From positions 5,298 through 69,297 of the forward strand of contig JAOUKN010000001.1 of NCBI GenBank assembly GCA_029882515.1: a stretch of 64,000 nt of DNA, given 5' to 3'. The stretch is from Candidatus Bathyarchaeota archaeon. GTDB taxonomy: Archaea; Thermoproteota; Bathyarchaeia; Bathyarchaeales; Bathyarchaeaceae. Position 1 is the first letter of the stretch; each line of letters begins with the position of its first letter. Of the stretch, positions 1 to 17,471 are shown piece after piece. The position numbers were made by a program, and so were the translations under genes. A model generated the notes under the pieces. It was not told the origin of the DNA and made no database searches. It saw only the letters and a program-made list of their open reading frames with translations.

Positions 1-237
1 AGTGTCCTGATGATTGCCAGCACGATCTCCCGAACAACCTACATCAACGGGATCGCTTTGTCGACTGATCTAACTCCATCGCTCGCTATGGGGCAAACGA
101 TGGATCACGTCGCTGCTGTCATCTTGCCATTAACCGGCGGAATACTTTGGGGAATCATTGGGTATGAAGCAACATTCTTTATCGGTATAGCAGTAGCAAC
201 ATGTCTGCTTTTGACTGCACAAAAAATCCAATTATGA
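1..237 (+). CDS. C-terminal end of a polytopic membrane (transporter-like) protein, 5' truncated by the window edge
   Basis: Frame 1 is open from nt 1 to the stop at 235-237. Two hydrophobic helices (AAVILPLTGGILWGIIGY, FFIGIAVATCLLL). Family cannot be named from 78 aa. Confidence 0.4.
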   Translation, partial: SVLMIASTISRTTYINGIALSTDLTPSLAMGQTMDHVAAVILPLTGGILWGIIGYEATFFIGIAVATCLLLTAQKIQL

Positions 238-254
238 TGTTAGGCGCGAATAAT

Positions 255-401
255 CAGATAGAAGTCCACGATGTGATATTTGGCGATTGTGGAAATGATG
301 AATGGTTCTGCATAGTGGTTGGTTCACCTGATGCTGAAAACCTGATTGAAGCTGGCTTTGAGTTCGTTGATGAAATAAATGATAAGCACTTGTTCCCGTT
401 T
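255..401 (+). pseudogene. Remnant of the C-terminal extension of an archaeal tyrosine-recombinase/integrase-type protein (..DEWFCIVVGSPDAENLIEAGFEFVDEINDKHLF..)
   Basis: It lies inside track ORF 201..566. It matches the pattern I recall from archaeal integrase C-termini (DDEF.CKVA.T..EA..LIEAGFEYV....G.KLFRKRK). No catalytic domain lies upstream, the usual RKRK end is missing, and the frame runs straight into the (CG)4 tract at 402-409. Confidence 0.45.
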
Positions 402-421
402 GCGCGCGCCGTGTATGTGCG
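401..421. repeat. (CG)4 tract plus alternating Pu-Py extension (tGCGCGCGC|cgtgtatgtgcg)
   Basis: Read directly. Pure CG at 402-409. It lies 20 nt downstream of the stop of the minus-strand gene 429..881. Confidence 0.9.
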
Positions 422-428
422 AATGGTA

Positions 429-881
429 CTATTCGGTTTCTTTAACCTTCGGAAATCTTGTCAAAATTTTCTGAATGAATTTATCTTCGAAGTCCCATGC
501 TTCGAGTATGTCTGTTACTTCCTCCATGAGTTCTTCTTTTGTGTATTTCTCCAGTTTCCCAGTTAATTCGTCGAGCGCAAGTCCACAGGCGTACAAATGA
601 ATTCCTTTCTCGCTGGGGGAGATTACAACGTGTATCCCTGATCTTTGGGCTGCTCGGACGTACTTGTCTAGCCCTAGGGGAGACAGCAATGCCTTGGTCA
701 TCAAGGGCACAAGTGCACCTTCTCCTGCAAAAACTGTTGTCTGCCCTTCTTTGGTCGACTCTTCTTTCGTGATTTTTAAGCCCATGCCCTTCAGAACTTC
801 GTGGCAAACTTTAACCACTTCATCAACAGTCGCATTACTAATGAGCAACTTTTTCTCAAAGCAAACAGACATCAATGACAC
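429..881 (-). CDS. Hypothetical protein, 150 aa
   Basis: Track ORF with a soluble-looking sequence. Overlapping ORFs in other frames look like antisense artefacts. No family recognised. Confidence 0.55.
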   Translation of the reverse strand: MSLMSVCFEKKLLISNATVDEVVKVCHEVLKGMGLKITKEESTKEGQTTVFAGEGALVPLMTKALLSPLGLDKYVRAAQRSGIHVVISPSEKGIHLYACGLALDELTGKLEKYTKEELMEEVTDILEAWDFEDKFIQKILTRFPKVKETE

Positions 882-931
882 CGTATTCCTTTCAATTCTT
901 CCAGCTTATTTATCTTTTCTAGTGAGTTAAC

Positions 932-966
932 TGCACGCGCTGGCAAGTCTGCGGGCATGCGCGTGC
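932..966. repeat. Inverted repeat of alternating tracts: GCACGCGC (933-940) / GCGCGTGC (959-966), 18-nt spacer
   Basis: The arms are exact 8-nt reverse complements. The repeat lies 48 nt downstream of the stop of 1014..2096(-) and 52 nt upstream of the start of 429..881(-). Confidence 0.85.
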
Positions 967-1013
967 TGCAAACATTTCCTCGAGAAAACACTACTATGAC
1001 TAGGCGTGCTCGT

Positions 1014-2096
1014 TCACTTCTTAAGCTTGGCCAGATAGAAATACCGTACTTGTCTTCCGTTTTCTATTTTCTCCAGCGTCCGCTTGGCATCCTGTGCTCT
1101 GTCTTCATAGATGTCGGCGTTGCCTTCTTTGGCGAAGAGTTCTTTCAGTTCTTCAGCGGCTTCTATTTCACGGATCCATATCCCTCTGCTGCTGGCCGTG
1201 TAGTCAACTGTCTCATAAGCTAAACCATTGTTACTCAGAGCTGCGCCGACTTTCGAGCTTTGCGGAAGTAGAACATCCCGAGACTCATCAGGGTCGCAGC
1301 TCTGGCCATAGAAGATGGCCAATCTGCCGTTTATTGGTTTCAGAAGGCTCCTCAGTTTCTCTATTGTCGCATCGATGTTCTCAACGAAGTACAGTGTGTC
1401 TATCGAAATTATGGCGTCGAAACTCTGCTCTTGAAATGACAAATCGTCCATGTCGCCCACCACATAGGTTAAGCGGTCTTTCTTGTCGACTGTTCGCTGC
1501 TGTGCTCTCTTGATCACTTCAGGGGCAAAGTCAAGTCCGACCATTTTGGCACCTGTGAGGTCGGATATGTATTCGGTTATTCTTCCGTTCCCGCATCCCA
1601 AATCCAGAGCAACTTCACTGGGCTTCAGTTCCAACTTTTCTATCAAAGTGTTCAGCTGCTCCATGTCGAGCACGTTGTATTGGGATAGGTCTTTGCCGAA
1701 GACACGCTGGCAGAACATTGAATACGCTTTGCTGGTCTCGGTTCTTGACAAAAGATTGTCGTAGCCTTTGCTCATCCTTTCCTTCCTGCATTTTCTGCCG
1801 AGTTTCTTCCCGACATCCGACAGGAAGTAGCAGTCTGCCCTTTTCATGACCAATCCTATCTTCAGCAATTGCCGTAGAGAAGTGGCCGTTTTCTTGGCTT
1901 CTAGCGTTGCGCCGTCACTCAGGAATGATTTTATGCCCTCGACAGTGGGTCTGACTCGTCTGCCGTCAGGGAAAACGTACTCGCCTGAGGCTTCCAATCT
2001 GCGACTACTTTCGAACGCTGACAACACCGCCAAAACTTTCTTCTCCAAGTCTGGCATATCAGAAAAGGAATCTACAGTTGCTGTGTTTTCCGGCAT
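1014..2096 (-). CDS. Class I SAM-dependent methyltransferase with an N-terminal wHTH-like region
   Basis: Motif I VALDLGCGNGRITEYI, post-I acidic LDFAPE, and AIISIDTLYF. 360 aa. Confidence 0.8.
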   Translation of the reverse strand: MPENTATVDSFSDMPDLEKKVLAVLSAFESSRRLEASGEYVFPDGRRVRPTVEGIKSFLSDGATLEAKKTATSLRQLLKIGLVMKRADCYFLSDVGKKLGRKCRKERMSKGYDNLLSRTETSKAYSMFCQRVFGKDLSQYNVLDMEQLNTLIEKLELKPSEVALDLGCGNGRITEYISDLTGAKMVGLDFAPEVIKRAQQRTVDKKDRLTYVVGDMDDLSFQEQSFDAIISIDTLYFVENIDATIEKLRSLLKPINGRLAIFYGQSCDPDESRDVLLPQSSKVGAALSNNGLAYETVDYTASSRGIWIREIEAAEELKELFAKEGNADIYEDRAQDAKRTLEKIENGRQVRYFYLAKLKK

Positions 2097-2184
2097 AAGC
2101 AGACGCTCTACGCAAAATTACATAATCGATCAAATAAGTTTGCCGAATCGTCTTTCACGGACACGCCTATTTTCAAAGCCCCCA

Positions 2185-2195
2185 ATGCGCGCGCG
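2185..2195. repeat. (CG)4.5 tract (atGCGCGCGCG)
   Basis: Read directly. It lies 91 nt upstream of the start of 1014..2096(-). Confidence 0.9.
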
Positions 2196-2222
2196 ATTAT
2201 GCCTGCACACGTAAGGCTTAAG

Positions 2223-2238
2223 TATGACGTACGTCATA
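2223..2238. promoter_or_regulatory. Perfect 16-bp palindrome TATGACGTACGTCATA (operator-like)
   Basis: Read directly. Same half-sites (ATGAC-N4-GTCAT) as the two sites at 40724-40761. Confidence 0.6.
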
Positions 2239-2289
2239 ATTTATCTCTTGGATCGTTTTCCGAGACTGTTAAGGAGACATGCAGGCACG

Positions 2290-2412
2290 ATGTTGAAGAA
2301 TGAGGAAACTGAGAAACCGAGATATGTTGCAGCTGTTGGATTGCTGATTTTCTATGGTCTTTTGGCCTTTTCCATGATCTATGTAGTACTAAGAATTTCA
2401 GGGATATCATAA
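2290..2412 (+). CDS. Possible small membrane protein (40 aa from the internal ATG; track ORF starts at 2224)
   Basis: MLKNEETEKPRYVAAVGLLIFYGLLAFSMIYVVLRISGIS has one clear TM helix. AAGGAG lies about 15 nt upstream. Short and unverified. Confidence 0.25.
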   Translation: MLKNEETEKPRYVAAVGLLIFYGLLAFSMIYVVLRISGIS

Positions 2413-2505
2413 ATACACGTATGCGTTTTGTGACCGTTGTTGTTTTTTGTAAGGCATGTTTCTGAGTTTTTGCTATGTTGAAACCGTATGCTCTTAATAT
2501 AGGGA

Positions 2506-2520
2506 ACACGCGCGCGTATG
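2506..2520. repeat. (CG)4 tract within a 15-nt perfect alternating Pu-Py run (acaCGCGCGCGtatg)
   Basis: Read directly. It directly abuts the second integrase-type remnant. Confidence 0.9.
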
Positions 2521-2521
2521 A

Positions 2522-2620
2522 ATAGCCACCAAACTAGATGAAATTAAGGAGTTCCTTGAAGCTGGCTTTGATTTCGTCTGTCAAAAAGACGACCTAACGT
2601 ACTTCAGAAAACGCAAATAA
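2522..2620 (+). pseudogene. Second remnant of the integrase-type C-terminal module (IATKLDEIKEFLEAGFDFVCQKDDLTYFRKRK*)
   Basis: Hand translation. It is open only from the stop at 2519-2521, has no start codon, and ends in the typical ..FRKRK*. It shares ttgaagctggctttga.ttcgt with the copy at 346-368. Confidence 0.45.
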
Positions 2621-2642
2621 TATTCGTAGTATACTGGAAAAA

Positions 2643-4343
2643 CTATGGGTATCTGGCCTTTTTCTCGAATTGCTGCTCATAAATCTCTTTGACTTTTTGG
2701 ATGGTGTCAGCTTCCGCTGGGCTCTTATCGTCGCGAATCCGTGTAATTCTGGCAAATCGCAGTGCCATTCCACACTTGTATTTCGGACTTTTTTGTATCT
2801 CGTTGTAAGCTACTTCCACCACAATTTTGGGAACCACAACAACTCGTCCATGCTCTTCTTTCACAGCCGATTCCTTGAGTCGTTTTGTCATGCCAATAAT
2901 CTCAGTATCAGTCAACCCCTTGAACGTCTTCCCAACCATCAGCAACTCCCCACTCTCTGAGTCCCTAGCCGCTAGATAATAATCGGAAAGCCAGCCATGT
3001 CGTCTCCCATACCCCCATTCGGCGGCCACAACCACCAAGTCTAACGGCTCCAAGGTTCTCTTGATCTTGAACCAACGTTTTCCCCTAACTCCCGGAGTGT
3101 AACGGCTGTCCAATTTTTTCGCCATCAGCCCTTCATGTCCTCGACTCATGGCTTCTCTGAGAAACCGTTCAGCCTCTGCACGGTCATTAGTTATCACTTG
3201 CTTGGTTAAGGAAATATCTCCGCTGATTGCTTTCAATTTTCTTCGGCGTTCTACGTAAGGATCGGTGATTAAACTCGCTTCGTCAAGATAGAGCAGATCA
3301 AAGAGGTAAAGTTGAATCGGAATTTGCTTGGTCATTTCCTCAATATTGTGGACTCTTCGGAATCGTCGCATTAAATGCTGGAACAGCATGGGACTTCCAT
3401 CCTTCCCGACCGCTATAACCTCACCCTCCAGTATGGCTTCACGCGCCCCTATCTGATCACGCACCAACTGAACAACCTCAGGCAAGCTCTCGGTCACATC
3501 TGTCAATCTGCGACTGTACACCTTCACTTTGTCACCTGATTTGTGAATTTGAATCCGCGCGCCATCGAGCTTGTCCTCAAAAGCTGATTCCCCTCCATGC
3601 CCTCTTAAAGCCTCATCTACATCTGCCGCCATCTGAGCCATCATCGGTCTAATAGGTCGAAAAAGCTGGAATCGGATACTCAAAACGCCTTCCTTCCCCT
3701 GCACTTTCGCTATTGCCGCAACTTCGCTAACATCACCAGCCAGCATACTAGCCCTTTGCACAACGTCCAATGGAATTTGAAAAGCTTCAGAGACGGCGAG
3801 TTCCATCATGCCCTCAAAAAATCCTGTCCGCATCTCACCAATCAAAATCTTGACAAGGTACTTCGCTTCCAATGAAGTAGCTACCCCTAACAGAGTTTCC
3901 AGCAGACGTTCTTTCCGTTCTCGAGAACCAGACCCTGTCGTCTCAGCAATGACCGCTAATCTCCGCCTCACCTCCAGAATAGTCAAGGCCTTTTCAAAGA
4001 GCGTAACCTGTTTTCGAATTTTCCCTCCCTTCTCCAAAATGATCTTCGTTGCCGCCCCAACGTCACCCGTATGACTGAACGCTTCTCTAAACTCCTTCCA
4101 GTCAACATTCGCCAACCGTTTGATCACACCGCGTAAGGTCGCCCAACTCACTTCCAGTGTTCTTTGATCCCATTTTGGGAATGCGCGGCCAAGAATCATA
4201 GAGGTTGCAGGTTCCACCTCGTCGGCCTGTACTTTTTTCAGAAAGTCCGCCACTAAGTCTCTCATTAGCAGACGTTTTGATGTGCCTTCTAGTTTTTCGC
4301 AAAGTTCAGCTAGCGTTCGGAACTCTGTTGGCATAGTTGACAC
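2643..4343 (-). CDS. lig: ATP-dependent DNA ligase
   Basis: Adenylation motif I KLDGARIQIH, EGLMAK, and an archaeal-type DNA-binding N-domain. 566 aa. Confidence 0.95.
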   Translation of the reverse strand: MSTMPTEFRTLAELCEKLEGTSKRLLMRDLVADFLKKVQADEVEPATSMILGRAFPKWDQRTLEVSWATLRGVIKRLANVDWKEFREAFSHTGDVGAATKIILEKGGKIRKQVTLFEKALTILEVRRRLAVIAETTGSGSRERKERLLETLLGVATSLEAKYLVKILIGEMRTGFFEGMMELAVSEAFQIPLDVVQRASMLAGDVSEVAAIAKVQGKEGVLSIRFQLFRPIRPMMAQMAADVDEALRGHGGESAFEDKLDGARIQIHKSGDKVKVYSRRLTDVTESLPEVVQLVRDQIGAREAILEGEVIAVGKDGSPMLFQHLMRRFRRVHNIEEMTKQIPIQLYLFDLLYLDEASLITDPYVERRRKLKAISGDISLTKQVITNDRAEAERFLREAMSRGHEGLMAKKLDSRYTPGVRGKRWFKIKRTLEPLDLVVVAAEWGYGRRHGWLSDYYLAARDSESGELLMVGKTFKGLTDTEIIGMTKRLKESAVKEEHGRVVVVPKIVVEVAYNEIQKSPKYKCGMALRFARITRIRDDKSPAEADTIQKVKEIYEQQFEKKARYP

Positions 4344-4408
4344 TGTCTGGTTGGGAATTTATACAAATTTCCCTTTTCTATGCCTGTTATTCTGGTAAAA
4401 TGAGTGTG

Positions 4409-5059
4409 CTACTTTCCGAAGAACGTTTTTGCCCTGATCAAGTCTTTCATAGTGTTGATAGTTAGCCACATACCATCGTATACGTATCCTAGAAGTATTC
4501 TCTTATCGGCTAATATCTGCATCGTTGAAAATTCAAAGTCCCCTTCGTCTGGGAAGTGTCTCTCCACAATTTTCCTTTTGAAAACGTGGTGCCCCGCACT
4601 GACATAGAACTCTAGCGTTGGATTCCTTTCAAATCGAATCACATTTCTGTCATTTTGAAGAGTAACCTTTCCAAAGGGCAATATTGGCTTGGCGAGCAAC
4701 ACCGCTGCTCCCTTGCCGGCATAGTCAAAAAGTTCTTTTGGATTATAAAATACAAGATCGTCTACATTCATGACGTACGCGATGTTTCCTTTAATCTTTT
4801 GAAATGCTCTCTTGGTTGCTCCTCCCGTTCCTAGCTTGTTCGTCTCGACTGAGTATTCTACGTCAAGGGTTGTGAGTCCATCTTTGTCTGATGCTACAAT
4901 GATGTTTTGGAATCCACGGGTTTTAAGCCATGATATCTGTTTGTCCAACAAGGTTTCCTTATTAATCTTCAATAGAGGTTTCGGTGTCCATGTTTCTGGT
5001 TTGAGTCTCCACCCTTCGCCACCAGCCAGGATTATTGCCTCATTCATTCGTATCACCAT
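4409..5059 (-). CDS. Sugar-phosphate nucleotidyltransferase (NTP_transferase family)
   Basis: N-terminal ILAGGEGWRLKP (GGxGxRL) signature. I place the start at MVIRMNEAII (5059) or MNEAII (5047). The track ORF extends to 5200. Confidence 0.75.
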   Translation of the reverse strand: MVIRMNEAIILAGGEGWRLKPETWTPKPLLKINKETLLDKQISWLKTRGFQNIIVASDKDGLTTLDVEYSVETNKLGTGGATKRAFQKIKGNIAYVMNVDDLVFYNPKELFDYAGKGAAVLLAKPILPFGKVTLQNDRNVIRFERNPTLEFYVSAGHHVFKRKIVERHFPDEGDFEFSTMQILADKRILLGYVYDGMWLTINTMKDLIRAKTFFGK

Positions 5060-5203
5060 CACACCGTTGAGTTTTTGACGCGATGTTTGCGAGTAGACCC
5101 TATTGCCATTTCCTTTATAAGAATTTAGCTTGAGGAGGCGGTGATATCTCCTGCAATCCGAAATCTTACTTCCGATTTCTACTTTCTCCAAGAAACACAA
5201 AGG

Positions 5204-5212
5204 GCGCGCGTA
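5204..5212. repeat. (CG)3.5 tract (GCGCGCGta)
   Basis: Read directly. It lies 38 nt downstream of the stop of 5248..5931(-). The context agggcgcgcgta is also seen at 13351. Confidence 0.9.
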
Positions 5213-5247
5213 GTTATAGCCAAAATAGCCAGTAAGTTAGTTGACTT

Positions 5248-5931
5248 CTAGATCCATTTAATCGTGGGTTTGACGTAACTTTTATGTTGATCCATCCAGC
5301 GCTTTTCAGGGGCGTCCTTTGGATAGCCAAGCAGGATAGGCCCGTATATTCGTTCACCATCCGTTAGCTCAAGGGCTTGTACGATATCAGCATGGCCTTT
5401 GACCATTGCACCGAATCCTGTATAACAGCTGCCAAGACCGAGAGCGCATGCGGCAAGCATGATGTTCTCGCAGGCAAGCGCGCAACTCACTGCATTACTA
5501 ATTGGGCCTATGATAAAGAGGATGACAGGTGCACCATGGTAAATCATGTCTTTGGGTTCGGGCATCGCCTCATAGAGCTTCATTGCTTTCTCGTAGATTT
5601 CAGGGTCCGTCTCCTTCATGCTTTCAGTCATCTTTTTCCAGATCGGAAGCGCGGTCTGCAAGAGTTTTTGCTTGAACTCTGGGTCCTCAACAACTACAAA
5701 CCGCCACGGCTGAAAACGAAGGACTCCTTTCACCATGCCCATGGTTGAAGGGGCCTGATTGCCAGCCTCGATGATCGTATTGATGACATCCCTCGGAATT
5801 GGTTTAGGCTCATAAGACCTGACCGATCGTCGCTTATGCATAGCTTCAATTACTGGGTTCATCATTAACTTCACTGTCAGGAGGCTAAGACCGGATAGCA
5901 ATAAAAGCGTTCTGATCCGTATTTTGTGCAT
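5248..5931 (-). CDS. Nitroreductase family protein
   Basis: HKRRSVRSYEPKPIP..IIEAGNQAPS signature. The start may be the internal MMNPV (about 5862). Confidence 0.85.
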   Translation of the reverse strand: MHKIRIRTLLLLSGLSLLTVKLMMNPVIEAMHKRRSVRSYEPKPIPRDVINTIIEAGNQAPSTMGMVKGVLRFQPWRFVVVEDPEFKQKLLQTALPIWKKMTESMKETDPEIYEKAMKLYEAMPEPKDMIYHGAPVILFIIGPISNAVSCALACENIMLAACALGLGSCYTGFGAMVKGHADIVQALELTDGERIYGPILLGYPKDAPEKRWMDQHKSYVKPTIKWI

Positions 5932-5969
5932 ACAATCGCTTTCATTTGGACATCCTTCCTTATTTTTGG

Positions 5970-5982
5970 ATGTGCGCGCGCG
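5970..5982. repeat. (CG)4.5 tract in a 13-nt alternating run (atgtGCGCGCGCG)
   Basis: Read directly. It lies in the divergent intergenic region between 5248..5931(-) and 6131..7213(+). Confidence 0.9.
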
Positions 5983-6130
5983 ACATCGATGTCCCTAAAT
6001 ACTCTAGAGACTGTGATCTTAACTGCTCCAATGTTCCAAAGTAGATTGTCCGAGACTCTTTGCAGATGATGCATGCACGCATGATTTATATGTTTAAGTA
6101 ACAATTGCTGTAAATAAAGGGAAAAATGCT

Positions 6131-7213
6131 TTGAATATATTTTTACTAATTATTGTATCTATAACAGGATTTTTTTTGCTTCTCTATATCGGGTTATTAC
6201 TGTATAAGAACTATTTGAGAAATTCGACTAGAATAGAGACATCTAATGGCATAAGTTCATTGGAGGAGATTACCCTTGGTGATTTAAAACAATGGATATT
6301 TATCAGAAGTACAGATCAAAATAATCCAGTTTTGTTATTTTTGCATGGTGGTCCTGGTGCGCCTTTGTTGGGGATGTCAAGTTCGCGTAAATATGATGCT
6401 GAGTTAATTAAGCATTTTACAGTAGTTCATTGGGATCAACGAGGGGCGGGTAAATCATTTAGTGATGATATTCCAATTGATTCAATGACTTTGGATAGAT
6501 TTGTTGAGGACTGTAATGAGTTAATAGATTATTTACGAAATAGATTTCTCACTCAAAAAATCTTTTTAGTTGCTCATTCAGGGGGCACGGTAATTGGAAT
6601 TAAAACTGCACAAAGATATCCGGAGAAAATTCATGCTTATGTTGGAGTGGCGCAAGTTATAAACGAATATGAACAACAAAAAGTTTCATACAAGTTTATA
6701 GTTGAAAAAGCTGAAAAATCTGAAGATTCAGGAAGACAAAATGCTATAAAAGCAATAGGACCACCACCTTATGAATCACCGAAAAAATTCTTAAAAATGT
6801 CTGGGTATGTTGCTAAATATGGAGGACTCTTGCATAGTAAGTCTATGATGGATATGATAATTATAGCGTTAGACTTCTTAACTTCGCCTGAATATTCATT
6901 ATTAGAAGGAATTAGAACATTCAGAAATAAAGGATTTGATTTTACTATTAATGCAATGTGGGAGGAATTGAAAAATGTCAATCTTACAAAAGAAATTCAA
7001 TCTATTAAAGTCCCCATATACTTCTTTGAAGGAAAATACGATGTGGCTACTCCCACAGTTGTTGTTGAGAAATTTTATGACAATTTAGATGCTGAAAAAG
7101 GTAAAAAGCTATTCATTTTTGAAAATTCAGGGCATATGCCAATGATGGAAGAAAAAGAGAGATACGAGGAATTATTGATAAATGTTGTTTTGAAAGATAA
7201 TCTGAATAAATAA
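6131..7213 (+). CDS. Alpha/beta hydrolase, proline-iminopeptidase-like (S33), with N-terminal TM anchor
   Basis: LFLHGGPGAP, DQRGAGKS and the nucleophile elbow VAHSGGT. The gene is markedly more AT-rich than its neighbours. Confidence 0.85.
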   Translation: MNIFLLIIVSITGFFLLLYIGLLLYKNYLRNSTRIETSNGISSLEEITLGDLKQWIFIRSTDQNNPVLLFLHGGPGAPLLGMSSSRKYDAELIKHFTVVHWDQRGAGKSFSDDIPIDSMTLDRFVEDCNELIDYLRNRFLTQKIFLVAHSGGTVIGIKTAQRYPEKIHAYVGVAQVINEYEQQKVSYKFIVEKAEKSEDSGRQNAIKAIGPPPYESPKKFLKMSGYVAKYGGLLHSKSMMDMIIIALDFLTSPEYSLLEGIRTFRNKGFDFTINAMWEELKNVNLTKEIQSIKVPIYFFEGKYDVATPTVVVEKFYDNLDAEKGKKLFIFENSGHMPMMEEKERYEELLINVVLKDNLNK

Positions 7214-7518
7214 TAAACTCAAAAATGAAAGCGATTAATTATGACAAATAGGATCACATAGACCGGCATGATCAATTTGCTAGAAGAAGTAGATTCTGTC
7301 CAAATTGTAGAAGGATGAAGAGCGCTTTAGATGAGGCATTTGAAAGGAAACGCTAACACCTGAAAGAAGAATTCCAAGAATAAAAGTTGGAAAAAGACGA
7401 ACTCTTGAAGCGTTGATTAATGAAGAAGTTTTATTGCTGGCAAAATATCAAGAGATGAGTGTGATAAATGGGCTTTCAGAATTGTGAACATTGACTAGAT
7501 ATCCGTTAACCTTCCTGA

Positions 7519-7884
7519 TTAGACCCAGTTCCATGCATACCAAACAGTCAGTACATTAAACCCAAGTCCTACAATTATCAAAAATTTGTCATAAGCTCCA
7601 GGGTAACCAGGCAATCCAATGAGATTAAAACCAAGCAAGAATATGGCTACAATGATGTTTACCCAGCGAATCAAAGGATAGGTCAACGTTAGGGACAAGA
7701 AAAGCATCACAATCGGAATCAGCATTAATATTGCCATTAACATCAACATTGTCTGCGTCAGTTGCTTACCTCCCACTTGCCCCGCTGTAAAGTCACCGGC
7801 AAATATTCGCAGCACATCCCCCAAAAGATAAACTAACATTAAAGCTACCCACAATCCTGAAAGGATTATTCTCACATCGTCCAT
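7519..7884 (-). CDS. Small polytopic membrane protein (DUF6326-like)
   Basis: 121 aa with four predicted TM helices. The N-terminus LSGLWVALMLVYLLGDVLRIF resembles that family. Confidence 0.55.
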   Translation of the reverse strand: MDDVRIILSGLWVALMLVYLLGDVLRIFAGDFTAGQVGGKQLTQTMLMLMAILMLIPIVMLFLSLTLTYPLIRWVNIIVAIFLLGFNLIGLPGYPGAYDKFLIIVGLGFNVLTVWYAWNWV

Positions 7885-7957
7885 AATTCAATCACATCCG
7901 TTGGACAATTGTCCTTGCTTAATATTTCAGGTTTGGGTTTGGGGGTTAAGATTTAAT

Positions 7958-7973
7958 CCAACCAACCAACCAA
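7958..7973. repeat. (CCAA)4 microsatellite
   Basis: Read directly, in an intergenic region. Confidence 0.9.
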
Positions 7974-8125
7974 GGCACGGCTAACAGCTAAGCCAATCAC
8001 AGGCTAATAAACGACTGGCATGTCAACCTGTTTCTCCTGAACCACATACCACATAATAACCTTTGGTTAGCGCCTGAAAATTGAGATTTGGAATGGGAAA
8101 CTTGAGAGTAAGTATTTCCTTATTA

Positions 8126-8135
8126 ACGCGCGCGC
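8126..8135. repeat. (CG)4.5 tract (aCGCGCGCGC)
   Basis: Read directly. It ends 3 nt before the stop codon (8139-8141) of 8139..8927(-). Confidence 0.9.
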
Positions 8136-8138
8136 TTC

Positions 8139-8927
8139 TTACTGTGGACCTATTGTGGAGCCACCAGATGTATTGACATCGATCGTGGTGGGGTTCCCTG
8201 TGTATTTGAGGTGTGAGCCTCCGCTTACGTCACCATCTAATCTGCCATCAAGGTTTACTGTTGCGTGGCTTCCACCACCTAGGTTGACAGTGGTATCATG
8301 AACAGGGAAATCCGAGAGGTCCAAGTGGCTTCCGCCAGAAGCGCTGATGGTCAGGTCATTGGCTGCACCGTCCAGTCCAATCAAATGACTTCCTCCAGAC
8401 AGGGTAAATTGGGCATCTTCACTGGTCGTAAAGTCGCCACTGAGATAGCTACCTCCCGATAAGTCGACAGCATATTCATGCGAAGAGGTAAATCCTTCAA
8501 CGGTACCGTGTGTTCCTCCTGAAAGCTTCAACTCGTAAAGGTCAGGCATTGTGATTTCGGCTCTCAAGATTACATCTTGATAACTATAGCCCCATTTGAG
8601 ACCGATTGTCAGGGTATCTCCAGTCTGAGAAACCTCGATATAACCGAACATATTGTCGTCTGCCATTATGTTGATGCTATATGAATCTGCTTGGCCAATA
8701 TCAACCTCAAAACCCCATCCCACTTCAACAATCGTGAAATCAGTGAAGTCCTTCTCTTCGGTATCTAATGTTCCAGAACCGGCTACATGACCGAATGGTT
8801 TCCAAAATCCAAGTAAGACTGCCGATATCACTACGGCCACTACAGACCCTACTACAATAATGATTATCAAAGCAATGACCAGAGTGCTTATGGCATGCGT
8901 GTTTGTTTTCAACTGCTTTCTACTCAT
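8139..8927 (-). CDS. Membrane-anchored beta-rich protein, DUF2807/DUF4097-like (adhesin head GIN-type repeats)
   Basis: N-terminal TM helix followed by a reiterated SGGSHL/GGGSH periodicity. Confidence 0.55.
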   Translation of the reverse strand: MSRKQLKTNTHAISTLVIALIIIIVVGSVVAVVISAVLLGFWKPFGHVAGSGTLDTEEKDFTDFTIVEVGWGFEVDIGQADSYSINIMADDNMFGYIEVSQTGDTLTIGLKWGYSYQDVILRAEITMPDLYELKLSGGTHGTVEGFTSSHEYAVDLSGGSYLSGDFTTSEDAQFTLSGGSHLIGLDGAANDLTISASGGSHLDLSDFPVHDTTVNLGGGSHATVNLDGRLDGDVSGGSHLKYTGNPTTIDVNTSGGSTIGPQ

Positions 8928-9022
8928 CCTACATCACGCATTACGTATCCTGTTACAGTTTTTATGACTTGTGCAAGAATCTAAAAAGATCAGATTAAGT
9001 GTCCATTCTCAGTATTCTTCAT

Positions 9023-9031
9023 TGCACGCGC
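9023..9031. repeat. Alternating tract tGCACGCGC
   Basis: Read directly. It immediately abuts the stop of 9032..9712(-). Confidence 0.85.
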
Positions 9032-9712
9032 TCAGGTGAGATCGGTAAATATCAATTCTCTTCTATTCTTGCCAACCATTCTAATCGCACCCATTTTTCT
9101 GAGACAATAAGTCATCTTTCGTGTTAGGTAAAGGGGGATTCCTGTTAGATCTGCAAGGCTTCGGTTAGTGAATGGTCTTTCAAGGTCATTTGGCAAAAAT
9201 CTGCGAAAATCAACTTCATCCTTCAGAAAAACTCTATCCCTGACATCAATCAATTTTCTGTCTTTAATGCTTACTCCCCTTCTTCTCCAGCTTCCCTTGC
9301 CATCGTTACATCTTATCTCTTCTTCCTCAATCATCAAAACGTCCAACGAAAAATTCTCTCTAGCAATCAGATTAGGGATACTCACTAGCTCATAGAATAG
9401 ATCAACCAGCTTTCTCTTTCTCGGAGACTTTCTCTTACTTATTAATTCGCTTGACTCTGTAGTTCGAACTATCCATTTCCTCTCTGGAATGGGATACACT
9501 AGTCGGACTTCATGATTTTCAACCAAACTTGAAAGTTTCCTTTTAATAGCCCGAAAACTCTTGGTTTGAACTTCAATCAGAAGACTTCCCCTTAAAATGT
9601 CAATGATGAACCCATCTATCCTAGCCTCAAATCTGTCTTCTGGAAGTGAATACCACTCTTTGATCGCTGAATGAAGTAAATGTTCGTTCATTATTCCCCG
9701 AATAGATGACAT
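9032..9712 (-). CDS. PD-(D/E)xK nuclease-like protein with a C-terminal wHTH-like domain
   Basis: IDGFIIDIL..LLIEVQTKSF resembles a D..ExK core. The basic C-terminal part is helix-rich. Family not named. Confidence 0.45.
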   Translation of the reverse strand: MSSIRGIMNEHLLHSAIKEWYSLPEDRFEARIDGFIIDILRGSLLIEVQTKSFRAIKRKLSSLVENHEVRLVYPIPERKWIVRTTESSELISKRKSPRKRKLVDLFYELVSIPNLIARENFSLDVLMIEEEEIRCNDGKGSWRRRGVSIKDRKLIDVRDRVFLKDEVDFRRFLPNDLERPFTNRSLADLTGIPLYLTRKMTYCLRKMGAIRMVGKNRRELIFTDLT

Positions 9713-9891
9713 GGGATAATAGCATTGTTAACACTAAGGAATATACATCAAAAGGTATTGGCGCGTGCCTTTCACTTCCAAGAACTCTGCAGTAGAACCG
9801 ATCTGATACTAAAGATTTGGGAAAGAATCCTCTACCCAAACCAAAAAAAGGGAGTTGTGCGGGAGACATCTCCACATGCCTTTGGTTTATT

Positions 9892-9905
9892 TGCGCGCGC
9901 GTGTA
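9892..9905. repeat. (CG)4.5 tract in a 14-nt alternating run (tGCGCGCGCGtgta)
   Basis: Read directly. It lies 51-64 nt downstream of the stop of 9956..10375(-). Confidence 0.9.
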
Positions 9906-9931
9906 GTATTCTGGACTCGCTTAGAGGAGAG

Positions 9932-9956
9932 GTGCGTGCGCATAGTATGTGTGCAT
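9932..9956. repeat. Two alternating Pu-Py runs (gtgcgtgcgcata, tatgtgtgcat)
   Basis: Read directly. They directly abut the stop of 9956..10375(-). Confidence 0.85.
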
Positions 9957-10375
9957 TAAGGAGGAGTTGGCGTTCCCGGCTGTAAGTTAAGGTTTTCAAC
10001 ATATCCGTCTATCGTGTATGCTCCGTCCGCCGCGTATTCCTTGTGAAAAGGAATATAGAGGTATTGGTAATTATCGTTCCACCCTGTGCAATCGCCAGAA
10101 TCCCAAACTATAGTTCCGCTATGGGAACCTGTTCTAAGCGCTAGCCTAAACGTTGAGCCAATTTTCGTGACAGTAACGTAATAGGTGGTTCCCACATCCA
10201 TATAGATGCCTGTAAACCTGCTTGATGCCGCAAAGCTATCAACGTCATTATGCAATGCCATAAACGTGACATAGTATTTTGTGTCATCGCTTGGCTTTTT
10301 CATAATGTAATAGAAAAGTCTGTCATCATGATGCGGATATGGATGGTCATTCGAGACAGCATAAGGAAACACCAT
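9956..10375 (-). CDS. Hypothetical beta-rich protein, 139 aa
   Basis: Track ORF with an aromatic- and Gly-rich sequence. No family recognised. Confidence 0.5.
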   Translation of the reverse strand: MVFPYAVSNDHPYPHHDDRLFYYIMKKPSDDTKYYVTFMALHNDVDSFAASSRFTGIYMDVGTTYYVTVTKIGSTFRLALRTGSHSGTIVWDSGDCTGWNDNYQYLYIPFHKEYAADGAYTIDGYVENLNLQPGTPTPP

Positions 10376-10402
10376 AAGGCTATATAGAGCAGGGTCGTTT
10401 CC

Positions 10403-10433
10403 TGCGCGCGCGCGGATCCTTCTTCGCGCGCGC
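10403..10433. repeat. Paired tracts (CG)5.5 and (CG)4.5 separated by gatccttctt; potential 9-bp all-GC hairpin
   Basis: GCGCGCGCGCG at 10404-10414 and CGCGCGCGC at 10425-10433. They lie between the stop of 10501..11469(-) and the start of 9956..10375(-). Confidence 0.9.
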
Positions 10434-10494
10434 CAAGTGTATTAGTCCATGTTGAAATTTGTGCGGGCGCATCTTGAAGACGCCTTGGGGGTTC

Positions 10495-10500
10495 CGCGCG
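10495..10500. repeat. (CG)3 tract
   Basis: CGCGCG directly abuts the stop codon (10501-10503) of the ArsR-like gene. Confidence 0.85.
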
Positions 10501-11469
10501 TTACTGAAATCTTTCAGATACAAGATCCCCTAGCAGAGTTAATTTCCCTTGCTTTGTTAAACCCATACGTTCAAATTTTGGGATCAATTCCTTTTCGTTG
10601 GTATATTTGCGCGCCTGTCCCATAGCGATTCCCTTTAGGGCATCAATGGCTTTAGGTCTCCCTTTTATCCATTTGTAGAGCTCTTCAACCTTGCTCGCAC
10701 GAGTAGGTGCTCTTTCCCAATAGTATTGGAATAAATCCTCACACCATGTGTGTGCTCTTTCATCTGTGGCTGTGAACCCAAGATAGTCAAATTTTTCATC
10801 TGGGAGTGGGAAGGCGACCCCTGCTACTTCTCTCTCCGACATGGAAAGGAATACGTCTAGCCGCTCTAATATCCTCTCTTCCAGAAAATCTGCAATCCTA
10901 GCTCTATCAAAGGCCTCCCTGTCGTCAGGGAGATAATGATAGCGGTAATAGTCAATAGGCTCTATGTTTCTTACGCTCACCTTCCGTTCAACTGCTTCTC
11001 TGAATAAGGGGATAGTGTTAACGAGGTATTGATCAGCAATTGTCCAGATATACTCCTCCGCCTCACGCATCATCTTCTCAATGTCATAAAAAGCGACCAT
11101 AATGTTATCTGTACGGTGTGCATCTGCCAATTCACCTATTCTACACAAAAACTGAGAAGGAACATGAGCCAGAGTGTGGGAAGTGAAATAGTCATTGTGC
11201 TGCGATATGAATCTTAATCCCCCAAGTTGTTTCAAGACAACTTCGCCATAAAAGGTCACATGATGTAGACCTTCAACGTCCTTCTGAGTTAATCCAACAT
11301 CGCTTAATCGGGAAACGTGTCTGCTTGTCTCTTGAGTAGTGAGATCCAACGCCTTTGAGAGACGTGTGACATTCATTGCCTTCTTGTCCAATTGATAGAG
11401 TATTCTAAGTCGGTCCTCGTTTGAGAGCTCGAACAACAAGTTACAGAACTTCTCCAACACAAACACCAA
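10501..11469 (-). CDS. ArsR-type wHTH transcriptional regulator with a large C-terminal domain
   Basis: NEDRLRILYQLDKKAMNVTRLSKALDLTTQETSRHVSRLSDVGL is a typical HTH_20/ArsR pattern. 322 aa. Confidence 0.75.
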   Translation of the reverse strand: MVFVLEKFCNLLFELSNEDRLRILYQLDKKAMNVTRLSKALDLTTQETSRHVSRLSDVGLTQKDVEGLHHVTFYGEVVLKQLGGLRFISQHNDYFTSHTLAHVPSQFLCRIGELADAHRTDNIMVAFYDIEKMMREAEEYIWTIADQYLVNTIPLFREAVERKVSVRNIEPIDYYRYHYLPDDREAFDRARIADFLEERILERLDVFLSMSEREVAGVAFPLPDEKFDYLGFTATDERAHTWCEDLFQYYWERAPTRASKVEELYKWIKGRPKAIDALKGIAMGQARKYTNEKELIPKFERMGLTKQGKLTLLGDLVSERFQ

Positions 11470-11871
11470 CTATTGATCAATCTTGAATTTCCTCGGCGAT
11501 ACTAACATTCCCACATTGTTCTTAACTTCCTCTATCAGATATTAATGTTCCCAAACTCTTCTTGCGGAGACTTTATCACAAAAGTCTTGGATGTTTGATA
11601 GTAGGTGAAGAAAAATGGGAAATGGAAAAATGAGTTTGAACAGATTGAAAATACAGAAGGTGCTTCGATTGGTTGGAATGAACGGAGGTTTTGAGCAGTC
11701 ATCGGGTCTCCAACAACAAGTTGTTCATGGAGGCGTCTCTTCAGGCAACTATCACAACAATTGGAAGGAAATCGAAGCTGCTTCATTAGAAGCAGAATAC
11801 AATAAAGCGAAAGCACTAATGGAACTGCAGAAACGATTTATCTGTTAAAAGTCGCCACTGTCACAGAAAAA

Positions 11872-11882
11872 ACACACGCGCG
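11872..11882. repeat. Alternating run acacaCGCGCG
   Basis: Read directly. It lies 18 nt upstream of ORF 11900..12145. Confidence 0.85.
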
Positions 11883-11899
11883 AAATTGCGGATGAAAAA

Positions 11900-12145
11900 A
11901 TGGAACACACATTCTCTATAGAGATCAGGTCAAGGATGCATGTCAAGTCAATAGAATACTGTTGCTCAAGCAAGTCCAACGACCGGGTGTTGTTCGAGGG
12001 ATCTCTAGGTAAACTGGAAGAACTATCCATGGTCGAAGGCAAGGTTCTGGAGATAAAGGGTACAAATGGGATACTGAGAATAGATCTTAGCGAGGACATG
12101 CTGTGTAAGATGCTCTCTCATACGCACCCGCGCGCGAGACTTTAA
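11900..12145 (+). CDS. Possible small beta-rich protein, 81 aa
   Basis: Track ORF. The sequence looks protein-like (VLFEGSLGKLEELSMVEGKVLEIKGTNGILRIDLSEDML). Its last codons (PRARL*) are encoded by the CG tract at 12129-12136. Confidence 0.3.
   Translation: MEHTFSIEIRSRMHVKSIEYCCSSKSNDRVLFEGSLGKLEELSMVEGKVLEIKGTNGILRIDLSEDMLCKMLSHTHPRARL
12129..12136. repeat. (CG)4 tract
   Basis: Read directly (cacCCGCGCGCGaga). Confidence 0.9.
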
Positions 12146-12300
12146 GTAGTTATTTAACGTTTCAAGCTATAGTATTTCAAATGAGAGAGAATTCCTATGA
12201 GAACAAAACCATGCAATCCCACGTTCTCAGTTCAAACGAGCAATATTTGGAATTGTCGATGGATAAATGTAAAAACACGGAAACACAGAACGAAGGGATT

Positions 12301-13203
12301 CTAGGATGCTTTACGAAGGAAGTTGGTGAGGATTGTCACTATCGTTTCGGGGCAATCTTCCTGTAACCAGTGGCTGGCGTCAGGCAACTCGTAGCTTTTC
12401 GTGCGAGGATACACTTTCTTCCACCAATCGAGTGTTCTTTTGGGAAAAATGGGGTCCTTCATTCCCCAGATTATGATTTTTTCTTTGTCCCTTAGGAGAT
12501 CCAAGTTCCGTTCAATTGAACGCATAGTCTTAGCGCTAGGATGGTCATCTCCGACTGGAATATCTCTCGGAAAAGCTATGGCTCCGATACAAGAAGCACG
12601 ATTCGGGAAAGGCGCTGTATAAGCACGAATCACAGTCTCACTTGGAGGTCCACTCACAAGGGTCGCTGCAAACATCCTTGGAATGAACGTCGCCATATTG
12701 CCGAGAACATCTTCGTAAATTCCTTTTTCTTCCATGTCAGAAATCCAAGTTTTTGCGCCTGCAGGTAAGACCCCTACCCCCGTATTCATAATTACCAACC
12801 GTTTTACCTTTTCAGGATGGGTGGTAGCAAAACCCAAGGATATAGGACCTCCCCAATCCTGACAGACCAGCGTGATATCTTTCAAATCCAATTCAAGGAG
12901 AAGTTTTCTGAAGTTGTCGATGTGTTGAGCCAAAATGTAAGGCTTATCTTGAGGAACATCACTTTTGCCAAAGCCCATATGGTCCGGAACTACTACACGG
13001 TTAAACTTGGATAAGGGTGTTATGAATTTTCGATATAAATAACCCCAAGTTGGTTCTCCATGAACACAAACCATGGGCTCCCCTTTTCCTTCATCAACAT
13101 AATGCATCTGAAAACCATTTATCTCTCTGAAGTTCGGCTTGAACGGAAACGTTCTATCAAAAGTCTCGTTACGAATATCCTCCTTCAAACAACCATTCTC
13201 CAC
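12301..13203 (-). CDS. Haloalkane dehalogenase-like alpha/beta hydrolase
   Basis: HGEPTWGYLYRKF and the nucleophile motif QDWGGPI. 300 aa. Confidence 0.85.
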   Translation of the reverse strand: MENGCLKEDIRNETFDRTFPFKPNFREINGFQMHYVDEGKGEPMVCVHGEPTWGYLYRKFITPLSKFNRVVVPDHMGFGKSDVPQDKPYILAQHIDNFRKLLLELDLKDITLVCQDWGGPISLGFATTHPEKVKRLVIMNTGVGVLPAGAKTWISDMEEKGIYEDVLGNMATFIPRMFAATLVSGPPSETVIRAYTAPFPNRASCIGAIAFPRDIPVGDDHPSAKTMRSIERNLDLLRDKEKIIIWGMKDPIFPKRTLDWWKKVYPRTKSYELPDASHWLQEDCPETIVTILTNFLRKAS

Positions 13204-13353
13204 ACACCCGTAACTGGTGCCTAGTTAAATCTCTTAGGTTTTCATTAGAGAGGAAAAATGAAGAGTTTGCGGGAGATAACCACACTCTATGTTGTGCGCA
13301 GATTAGTTTTGAACCCTACAGCATTCTTTTAACGTTGATTGTAATTCTTTAGG

Positions 13354-13363
13354 GCGCGCGTAT
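13354..13363. repeat. (CG)3.5 tract (GCGCGCGtat)
   Basis: Read directly. It lies 19 nt downstream of the stop of 13379..13642(-). Confidence 0.9.
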
Positions 13364-13378
13364 CAGTCACAAGAAATA

Positions 13379-13642
13379 TTAGAGCATCAGATCACTGATG
13401 GTGTGAAGGTGTTCGAGAAACTTCACGCCCTTCTGAGTGGTTGTATAAACTGTCTTCTCACCTTTCATGGTCTCCTGCAAGAGCCCAACGTCCAAAAGAA
13501 AAGCCATGTAGCCCTTCAACTGATCAAAACTCAAATTTGCCCCATACATAATGTGGGTCTTCAAGCACCCGTTCTTCGTCATCTCCAAAATCTCAGCCAT
13601 AATGTACGTTCGATTCCGGCGTTTATGCCCATCAGACACCAA
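13379..13642 (-). CDS. Small winged-helix DNA-binding protein (HTH_45-like)
   Basis: RTYIMAEILEMTKNGCLKTHIMYGANLSFDQLKGYMAFLLDVGLL. 87 aa, TTG/GTG start. Confidence 0.7.
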   Translation of the reverse strand: MVSDGHKRRNRTYIMAEILEMTKNGCLKTHIMYGANLSFDQLKGYMAFLLDVGLLQETMKGEKTVYTTTQKGVKFLEHLHTISDLML

Positions 13643-13683
13643 CTAGCTCTCCTGCAACACCATTCTGTAATTGTCTATGACAT

Positions 13684-13756
13684 TCTTAAGGAAGCGAATT
13701 CTAAAAAGGGGTACTCCTGCAACACTAATATTCTCCAAAGAAACTATTCGATTTGG
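13684..13756 (-). promoter_or_regulatory. 73-bp intergenic element, copy A (inverted relative to copy B at 32741-32813)
   Basis: Hand alignment gives 66/73 identical to 32741-32813. It ends 41 nt upstream of the start of 13379..13642(-). Confidence 0.7.
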
Positions 13757-13851
13757 TGCACAAAACAATGCGCACGCAGTCAAGCCAGTTCTCTATTCTG
13801 ATTCTTTTGGTGAAAAAGTGATAACGAAGCGCCCGCTTTCACCAATGGAAT

Positions 13852-14235: not shown

Positions 14236-14483
14236 GCTTGATCCCTTTAACGGTTTGTTAACAATAGCTTACAAAGTTTATAAATTGTATTCCCATGCGA
14301 GAAAGGGTCGGTCACATGTTTCGTTGAAAGCGAGCTTTGTCGCGCTATAAACCTCATTGTATAGGCTTTTGTGAGACTTCCAATATTCATCTGGCTCCCC
14401 CGTAATTCCTAAGCGAAAATTTTTCAACCGACTCGTCTCAAATACCAAATCAGTCTCTTAGATGATTAAAAGGTGAACTGAAG

Positions 14484-15733: not shown

Positions 15734-15784
15734 TTCACTATTTATAAGGCAAGTCCTTTACTATCCCCACACAAAGCAAGCAAG

Positions 15785-17452: not shown

Positions 17453-17471
17453 TTGGCGTTTCCACTAATTT

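Follow-up and report, generated by a model that had tools for sequence, protein, structure and literature searches.

Short CG-repeat palindromes between the genes of a variable array beside the DNA ligase gene of a Bathyarchaeia chromosome

Integrons carry attC sites, imperfect hairpins of 50–150 nt with R and L boxes (R''-L''...L'-R'), and clusters of attC sites that lack an integrase are known as CALIN. Repetitive extragenic palindromes (REP, BIME, REPIN) are imperfect palindromes of 20–40 nt that have a family consensus and are spread by RAYT transposases. Hotspots of horizontal gene transfer (HGT) are usually explained by homologous recombination in their flanks or by mobile elements, and to our knowledge they do not carry a specific short joint motif. 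Here, we describe a locus in a 64,000-nt stretch of DNA from Candidatus Bathyarchaeota archaeon (assembly GCA_029882515.1, contig JAOUKN010000001.1, positions 5,298 to 69,297; hereafter, the window), in which short GCGCGCGC-type palindromes set apart single genes of unrelated function that flank a conserved DNA ligase gene on both sides. The locus touches the question of how single genes land in chromosomes without recognizable mobile elements.

These palindromes, which we call tracts, are concentrated in the array, lie almost exclusively between genes, stand where gene content varies between related loci, and in several cases coincide with the breakpoints of homology. The reading that we favor, with moderate confidence, is that (GC)n tracts are reusable break-and-join sites for the insertion and replacement of DNA segments. 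That the tracts cause or mediate the joining, and how they would do so, we infer from these observations. Found where gene content changes in related genomes, the palindromes suggest a route, not described so far, by which genes may be inserted and exchanged. The locus is of a known kind, a chromosomal gene-insertion hotspot or cassette array; its (GC)n joint signature has not been described before, and our literature searches turned up no account of archaeal gene arrays punctuated by tracts.

In layout and variability the locus is integron- or CALIN-like: it is a chromosomal array of mostly single, unrelated genes with short, repeated, palindromic delimiters near gene 3' ends, and its content differs between related genomes. 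However, it fails the tested molecular features of such systems, namely IntI, attC, and promoterless cassettes in one orientation. The original prediction for this DNA, made from sequence alone, had noted the lack of IntI and attC, and this was borne out: tblastn and inspection of translations by eye gave no IntI-like gene in the 64 kb, searches of the window found no attC-like structure, and no Rfam family reached its gathering score in the first 16 kb. The site consists only of (GC)3.5–6.5, with no conserved flanks or imperfect hairpins at the tracts. Whereas integron cassettes are promoterless, share one orientation, and are expressed from Pc, the units here have a TATA-like box ahead of each gene and occur in both orientations, so that the integron analogy drawn in the prediction stands for the layout and not for these features. 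For example, the promoter of the alpha/beta hydrolase gene at 6131–7213 is conserved and moves with its block, and in other genomes the DUF6326 gene beside it has the opposite orientation relative to the hydrolase. Arrays also lie on both sides of a core gene, and the same genes are free of such sites in other genomes. A classical integron or CALIN, that is, an attC array with its integrase elsewhere, is therefore extremely improbable, even though the units hold one gene each, mostly in one orientation and of unrelated accessory functions, and integrons are reported in Archaea (PMC9668308).

Like REP elements, the tracts are GC-rich extragenic palindromes found past gene 3' ends and associated with rearrangement joints, and their abundance is lineage-specific. 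Unlike REP elements, they are a simple dinucleotide palindrome of 8–10 nt, are concentrated in variable zones, and share only (GC)n; no IS200/RAYT-like gene was recognized in the window, based on annotation of the array and on the translations of the other open reading frames (ORFs) examined by eye. The locus resembles an HGT hotspot in having variable content between fixed core genes, at the junction of a tetratricopeptide repeat (TPR) gene with the sugar-1-phosphate nucleotidyltransferase (NTase) and ligase pair and at the ligase 3' flank, with integrase remnants nearby.

CG tracts in the window

We defined a tract as a pure alternating CG run of at least 7 nt. Twelve tracts of 7–11 nt are present in window positions 1–13,400 compared to three in the other 50.6 kb (Table 1), and the GCGCGCG motif has 36 matches against 1.91 ± 1.84 expected from dinucleotide-preserving shuffles, none of 100 of which reached 36. 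Tracts occupy 9 of the 15 intergenic gaps of the array and 3 of the 37 elsewhere in the window (p = 2e-4, Fisher test). Every tract in the window is intergenic except that at 3556–3562, which encodes G-A-R in the KxDGxR motif of the ligase and probably owes its presence to codon choice by coincidence. The CG-tract array of the original prediction is thus real. Its tracts do bracket one to three genes, although four of the claimed boundaries (932–940/955–966, 9023–9031, 9932–9944, and 11872–11882) proved to be imperfect tracts. These retain the alternation of purine and pyrimidine, which is the pattern expected from transition decay of a pure tract. Degenerate GC-rich alternating purine/pyrimidine runs are also seen in spacers across the rest of the window (17442–17452, 21190–21201, 22197–22209, 32629–32637, 46320–46329, and 47913–47925), and these may be old, transition-decayed tracts.

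Other claims about the array genes were largely upheld. Family searches showed the gene calls to be essentially right, the "nuclease-like" protein at 9032–9712 having no significant family or structure match in them, and most genes are on the minus strand, the hydrolase at 6131–7213 and an 81-aa ORF being the plus-strand exceptions. Base composition varies more among the units than among the other genes of the window (standard deviation of gene GC 0.047 versus 0.023, Levene p = 0.026), although this is mostly due to one gene with 32% GC. No family or PDB sequence match to a nuclease or recombinase was found among the array proteins that lack an assignment.

CG runs become geometrically rarer between 4 and 7 nt, but longer ones are in clear excess, with 44 runs of 8 nt, 34 of 9 nt, 11 of 10 nt, three of 11 nt, and two of 13 nt. 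The phase that starts with G is preferred ((GC)4 36 versus (CG)4 8; (GC)5 9 versus (CG)5 2), a ratio of 4.5:1 for the longer tracts compared to merely 115:62, or ~1.9:1, for 6-mers. Dinucleotide repeats other than CG are not enriched in the array, and palindromes apart from the CG tracts show no obvious excess. No bases are conserved around the tracts, except for a weak preference for A after a core ending in C, and a repeat search found no shared inverted repeats near them. Two further ideas were set aside. Avoidance of GCGCGC through restriction does not explain the pattern, as isolated 6-mers are near the count estimated from base composition, and a hairpin-opening "P-nucleotide" origin, with a general excess of palindromes, is not borne out by the listed palindromes (187 versus 145–161 pairs per 12 kb, with the CG share of the excess not separated).

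Per kb, tandem spacers hold 0.43 tracts, convergent spacers 0.26, divergent spacers 0.18, and coding sequence 0.047, and 11 of 51 tracts are within 11 nt of a stop codon. These densities fit neither a promoter element nor a pure 3'-end element. They bear on the possibility that a winged-helix regulator or chromatin protein (e.g., Sso10a/HTH_45) uses the palindrome as its operator and so controls or silences a detoxification-type accessory regulon. The motif is indeed palindromic, it is often 5–25 nt upstream of a TATA-like box, and HTH_45/Sso10a genes stand at the array edge in the window and first after the ligase in loci L091, L094, and L095 (handles beginning with L denote related loci and contigs). 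There is also precedent in archaea for a CG-repeat operator, as OxsR of Haloferax has a motif rich in CG that lies upstream of BRE/TATA promoter elements (PMC9426492). However, convergent spacers are at least as dense in tracts as divergent ones, which argues against a promoter element, the distance from tract to start codon or TATA box varies from 7 to >200 nt, and tract length varies from 7 to 13 nt. An OxsR-like operator, with fixed spacing to BRE/TATA and confined to promoters, agrees with the tracts in neither orientation nor spacing. Tracts are also found within pseudogenes that have been truncated, as well as where the L053 ligase gene has a deletion, and homologs of the same genes with conserved promoters are tract-free in other genomes. 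We consider an operator role quite unlikely.

The ligase gene assigns the window to Bathyarchaeia, and the window is chromosomal. At 16–64 kb its ORF translations, identified by eye and not by a Pfam or family-library scan, are those of ordinary chromosomal genes (CysRS, Lon, PolB, Nth, and a Sun-family methyltransferase). The window sequence recurs unchanged in four independent assemblies, from ENA and Logan. In the longest, L069, a contig of the same strain, the tract-rich zone runs ~7 kb past the left edge of the window. L069 positions 17413–20462, ~3–6 kb beyond window position 1, hold six further tracts of at least 7 nt. One (17413–17419) is within a GNAT gene, and five are intergenic and separate GNAT, transglutaminase-core, 90-aa, TatD, and 67-aa genes; the array is thus larger than the coordinates first given for it. 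All of these data come from metagenome assemblies, in which low-complexity GC runs might produce an assembly or sequencing artifact. We give this almost no credence, as the sequence is the same in the four assemblies, the pattern recurs in metagenome-assembled genomes (MAGs) and contigs from many studies and assemblers, and tracts of 7–13 nt are far below assembly k-mer size.

Tracts and gene content in related genomes

Comparison of the window with related loci identified two conserved anchors. Thirty-five related loci have the TPR gene upstream of the ligase, and in all but one of these the distance is at most ~450 nt, whereas in the window ~8.7 kb with ten tracts separate it from the NTase–ligase pair. 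Genus-level relatives (85% ligase identity) have the gene order TPR, NTase–ligase, and in L080 and L079 the junction between them is empty. The NTase–ligase adjacency is conserved in the genus, and the ligase is a core anchor, not the accessory cassette it was originally taken to be. No window gene between the TPR gene and the NTase–ligase pair, or past the ligase, was found near the ligase in any related locus, save for weak paralog-level hits, and the DNA directly past the ligase stop differs in almost every relative. Window positions 1–13.9 kb and ~7 kb leftward are a hypervariable zone around the TPR gene and the NTase–ligase pair. In this the cassette-like character proposed for the array, a reading that is partly supported overall, was borne out, and several of its genes also float between contexts.

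Among the ~150 related loci compared, the tracts follow the variable parts. Across 51 loci, 33 of 417 gene adjacencies beside locus-specific genes hold a tract compared to 2 of 229 between shared genes (p = 4e-5), and a tract is present in 1 of 199 conserved gene adjacencies versus 34 of 447 unique ones. Relative to intergenic positions drawn at random from these loci, collinear conserved spacers are depleted of tracts (6 versus 14.3 ± 2.6 expected, P < 0.001). Alignment breakpoints are enriched in them (14 versus 8.5 ± 2.6 expected, P = 0.03), although this enrichment is modest (~1.6–1.9-fold) and the BLAST-derived alignment ends are fuzzy.

Individual joints are more telling. A second array, in another lineage, is present in L091, where nine tracts in 7.4 kb after the ligase separate HTH_45, ferredoxin-domain, metallo-beta-lactamase, luciferase-like monooxygenase, AlaX-like, PIN-like, HhH-GPD, and HpaB genes; smaller arrays are found in L004, L009, L053, L098, L103, and others. 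When L091 is aligned with L095 (88% nt identity), the homologous blocks break off at L091 2237 and at 4625, to be taken up again at 9636. L091 has tracts at 2230–2238, 4618–4624, and 9608–9615, and in L095 the "empty" site holds a single one. L003, L091, L094, and L095 have an orthologous tract, cactttt-GCGCGCG(C)(G), in common, and three sequences unrelated to each other follow it. Conversely, L104, L102, and L136 have a common right flank and three different left flanks, with a pure, degenerate, or 6-nt tract at the joint. In L053 (CP070791.1) the ligase gene has an 87-nt deletion (29 codons, window residues 210–238) and a frameshift, and the deletion joint (10100–10200) is (GC)6G, GCGCGCGCGCGCG; a masked N-run (9903–10000) is just upstream, and either the gene is a pseudogene, in a MAG that counts as "complete", or the assembly is in error.

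These joints also bear on the possibility that the tracts are a mutational by-product. In such a scenario, slippage or some peculiarity of polymerase or repair in a given lineage would generate (GC)n in place, and only DNA free of constraint would retain it. Recent acquisitions and pseudogene debris would be richest in DNA of this kind, and the tracts would mark junk instead of mediating recombination. Tract richness is lineage-specific and patchy, tracts occur within pseudogene remnants, hotspots can vary without tracts, and, as in a microsatellite, orthologous sites differ in length and purity (GCGC, CGCGC, and CGCGCGC; GCGCGCG versus GTGCGCG). Yet several homology breaks match tracts to the base, one tract has three alternative flanks, and tracts are at gene ends rather than at random spacer positions. 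Moreover, CG repeats alone among dinucleotide repeats are enriched in this way, and their G-start bias exceeds that of 6-mers. We consider a by-product unlikely.

The unit genes themselves have relatives in unrelated contexts. Homologs of the hydrolase (70–94% aa identity) are labelled Bathyarchaeota, Hod-, Odin-, Thor-, and Promethearchaeota, and Anaerolineales bacterium. At the DNA level, in other Bathyarchaeia the hydrolase block (window 6081–7224) is 87–92% identical and the DUF6326 block (7507–7970) 82–86% identical, in copies L073–L076. Contig L074 is in the same MAG as L022, whose ligase is only ~66% identical. Each homologous block is a gene and its TATA-box promoter only; the two blocks have different neighborhoods elsewhere, and the pair is convergent in some genomes and tandem in others. 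The spread of this two-gene module, as judged by sequence identity, indicates that genes have recently passed between phyla; many metabolic genes are exchanged between Bathyarchaeia and Asgard archaea. Nitroreductase and DUF2807 homologs (76–89% aa identity) are likewise found in several unrelated contexts. The closest nitroreductase copy (L157, 89% aa identity) has different surroundings and yet is also bracketed by tracts, one of them 2 nt past the stop, exactly where homology to the window ends. By these comparisons these units are "floating" single genes. If they traveled as tract-borne cassettes, their homologs elsewhere should have tracts, and this is true for L157 only.

Integrase remnants and a possible break-and-join mechanism

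The ligase 3' flank is also the site of an integrase. In L154, a full-length 488-aa tyrosine recombinase is convergent with the ligase and is accompanied by a mobile element (11712–15833; also L010 11722–15736); the gene after it encodes a 647-aa protein that is primase/helicase-like by eye, without a family search. Remnants of the integrase are present at the same ligase-convergent spot in nine loci (the window, L004, L010, L012, L103, L111, L120, L146, and L150), and the ligase 3' flank is an attachment hotspot for an integrase-bearing plasmid or virus in this family. The window holds three remnants of the tyrosine recombinase C-terminal tail (...EAGFEFV...FRKRK and a stop; Table 1). A tblastn search of the window with the full-length local-family integrase gave nothing significant, only these tail remnants of 20–33 codons, and no int(N) partner of them was found; in SSV-type partitioning integrases an att core inside the int gene gives int(N) and int(C) halves that flank the element at fixed positions, whereas the tails here are variably cut. 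No tRNA targets are present in the 64-kb window. The three most truncated remnants (window 2522–2620, window 27967–28026, and L004) each end at a tract, where 0.28 would be expected by chance, and they are cut at different codons, 13, 4, and 1 before the (E/K)AGF motif.

Might the array then be one or a few integrated elements, plasmids or viruses targeting the ligase 3' end, with the tracts as an element motif or att core? The L154 element, the remnants in nine loci, and the tracts adjoining the shortest remnants would agree with this. We nevertheless find it very unlikely, as L154 and L010, which have intact or long integrases, lack a tract there, and the different codons at which the tails are cut speak against a fixed att core. 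The array genes are ordinary metabolic or regulatory ones whose composition is mixed; genes for replication, structural proteins, or conjugation are absent from them, and arrays lie on both sides of the ligase. For the same reasons, namely that loci with intact integrases are tract-free and the remnants are cut at different codons, the integrase was rejected as the recombinase acting on the tracts.

The break-and-join reading would instead have gene-sized segments inserted and replaced repeatedly, each with one to three genes under their own TATA-type promoters, and (GC)n tracts, mostly (GC)4–(GC)5, would be the joints of these events. A tract would be reused by retaining the DNA on one side and exchanging that on the other. 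Because a tract is its own reverse complement, segments could enter in either orientation, and because no recombinase is encoded locally, the activity would act in trans and be lineage-specific. The course that we judge most economical is a double-strand break at the tract, due to a restriction-like endonuclease of GCGCGC type or to Z-DNA-prone fragility, that would then be ligated or end-joined by way of the CGCG repeat, which is self-complementary. If ends of the G^CGCGC type were joined perfectly, with slippage, or after fill-in, the outcome would be exactly the (GC)3/(GC)4/(GC)5 series and the G-start phase, and such joining would permit inversion and regenerate a cuttable site.

There are partial precedents for both kinds of break. 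Chang and Cohen are said to have obtained EcoRI-promoted recombination in vivo in 1977, and we know of no case in which restriction-promoted recombination has been described as the builder of a gene array in a natural genome. Recombination promoted by a BssHII-type enzyme (GCGCGC) would be like the present case in its regenerated, reusable palindromic joints, its orientation-independent insertion, and its host-lineage enzyme, and the phase and length series of the tracts fit slipped CGCG overhangs. In 2006, Wang et al. reportedly described Z-DNA-prone (CG)n as fragile or recombinogenic sites. None of the Z-DNA-prone cases known to us has regular single-gene punctuation by tracts of 8–10 nt; they are correlations, or long repeats that cause deletions, and differ from the tracts in this. 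The likeness is statistical, in that alternating CG runs are tied to recombination and to horizontally acquired regions; for alternating pyrimidine–purine stretches, a link with recombination or horizontal transfer has been proposed on statistical grounds (PMC2728739).

Several observations weigh against the tracts as break-and-join sites, besides the modest size of the breakpoint enrichment. In the sister genome L124, the TPR–ligase junction is filled with 3.6 kb of other genes (HxlR, methyltransferases) and no tracts, so that the same hotspot is variable without them and the tracts are lineage-specific and not required for variation. Many indels between related loci lack a tract, and tract richness is patchy even among close relatives, which limits the interpretation; CP070791 is tract-rich, whereas CP070759 and genomes of the L080 and L124 type are tract-poor. 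Flanking tracts are absent from the unit-gene homologs in L073–76, L158, L160, L161, and L163. Several breakpoints in related lineages match tracts to the base, as the original prediction would require, but the boundaries in the window's own array are approximate, at ~70 nt from a pure tract for the NTase promoter and 100–157 nt for the hydrolase and DUF6326 blocks. Likewise, the predicted variability of content is seen at this locus between relatives and not within the strain, as the 4/4 identical assemblies show no presence/absence polymorphism of the array. The tracts have no conserved flanking arms of the kind that a site-specific recombinase would need, no cognate endonuclease or methylase was identified in the ligase-neighborhood data, and mobility is without direct evidence in that we found no candidate enzyme, circular intermediate, or within-species polymorphism. 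The relatives sampled were ligase neighborhoods only, a source of sampling bias. The tracts are, thus, better described as a lineage-specific junction signature than as a requirement for mobility.

We propose more tentatively, as possible rather than probable, that a dedicated (GC)n-specific cut-and-join activity is encoded elsewhere in some Bathyarchaeia lineages and needs no integrase or attC. It would insert, invert, and exchange promoter-bearing single-gene segments at palindromic sites of 8–10 bp and so build integron-like arrays beside core genes from a pool shared with Asgard archaea and Chloroflexi. Such an activity would be a new class of gene-capture platform and could also serve to direct insertions to a minimal site of 8 bp. 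If the tracts are mere scars, they would report a lineage-specific repair process and date recent acquisitions. In either case, a joint motif at the borders of variable single-gene segments is a concrete signature that can be searched for across many uncultured genomes.

Array genes and other features

Table 1. Features of the array and related elements in the window.
Feature	Position (nt)	Strand	Remarks
Tyrosine recombinase tail remnant	346–396	+	Tract 402–409 stands where the RKRK-stop ending is expected
(GC)4 tract	402–409		20 nt past stop of gene 429–881
Unit 1, 150-aa protein	429–881	-	No family match
Two degenerate alternating tracts	932–966		TGCACGCGC and GCATGCGCGTGC
Class I S-adenosylmethionine methyltransferase	1014–2096	-	Small-molecule type; no DNA-methylase family match
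(GC)4G tract	2187–2195
Mini-unit	2196–2508		313 nt between two tracts
Perfect 16-nt palindrome	2223–2238		TATGACGTACGTCATA, within mini-unit
62-aa membrane mini-ORF	2224–2412		Of mini-unit
(CG)4 tract	2509–2516		Truncates integrase remnant
Tyrosine recombinase C-terminal tail remnant	2522–2620	+	IATKLDEIKEFLEAGFDFVCQKDDLTYFRKRK, then stop; no start codon; convergent with ligase
ATP-dependent DNA ligase	2643–4334	-	Conserved core gene; anchor of variable zones
CG tract	3556–3562		Within ligase gene
NTase	4409–5059	-	Ligase-adjacent in genus-level relatives
(GC)3G tract	5204–5210
Nitroreductase unit	5248–5931	-
(GC)4G tract	5974–5982
Degenerate alternating run	6069–6083		ATGCATGCACGCATG; adjoins left end of transferred hydrolase block
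Alpha/beta hydrolase	6131–7213	+	32% GC
DUF6326 membrane protein	7519–7884	-	Hydrolase partner that rearranges separately
C(GC)4 tract	8127–8135		3 nt past DUF2807 gene stop
DUF2807 (GIN-domain) protein unit	8139–8927	-
Degenerate tract	9023–9031		TGCACGCGC; adjoins stop of 9032–9712
226-aa protein	9032–9712	-	No significant family match
(GC)4G tract	9893–9901
Degenerate run	9932–9944		GTGCGTGCGCATA
139-aa protein	9956–10375	-	No family match
Double tract, (GC)5G and C(GC)4	10404–10414, 10425–10433		10 nt apart
ArsR/FilR1-like winged-helix regulator	10501–11469	-	CGCGCG 10495–10500 adjoins stop
Degenerate tract	11872–11882		ACACACGCGCG
81-aa ORF		+
(CG)4 tract	12129–12136
Alpha/beta hydrolase unit	12301–13203	-
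(GC)3G tract	13354–13360		19 nt past HTH_45 gene stop
HTH_45/Sso10a-family winged-helix protein	13379–13642	-	Array edge
TPR/SNAP-like gene	13852–14235	-	Conserved right-hand anchor
Second integrase-tail remnant	27967–28026	-	LKAGFEYVTERDEFKIYRKRK, then stop; no start codon; cut at tract 28033–28040
(CG)4 tract	28033–28040		Truncates second integrase-tail remnant
Tracts outside array	48939–48945, 62691–62700

The hydrolase and DUF6326 blocks are separated in the window by a 283-nt insert (7225–7506) that is absent from L073 and L074. It carries short ORF fragments ending in RFCPNCRRMKSALDEAFERKR and KVGKRRTLEALINEEVLLLAKYQEMSVINGLSEL, each followed by a stop, that resemble gene debris.

Additional insertions were noted near the TPR gene and in the smaller arrays. 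A gene that is CBS-domain-like by eye, without a family search, is inserted upstream of the TPR gene in L007 (1616–2626) relative to L004 (3195–3287), with no tract. L103 (3093–4970) has this same gene and two further genes, each with a tract 3–6 nt past its stop, and one of these (cluster 69) was found in at least four different contexts.

The HTH_45 protein, which is the first gene at the array edge in the window, belongs to the Sso10a chromatin family by NCBIfam. A distant relative of it (29% identity) is the first gene after the ligase in L091 (1875–2189), L094 (9973–10269), and L095 (11775–12086). A tract is close behind the HTH_45 gene in each case, within 50 nt in those three loci.

Two kinds of gene are possible leads for a tract-cutting activity. 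A small protein with an Mrr_cat-like restriction-endonuclease domain is encoded in the window at 31141–31590 on the plus strand. In L098, Mrr_cat-like and DUF123 genes (2816–3424 and 3744–4292), the latter of which we take to be GIY-YIG-related, sit between tracts.

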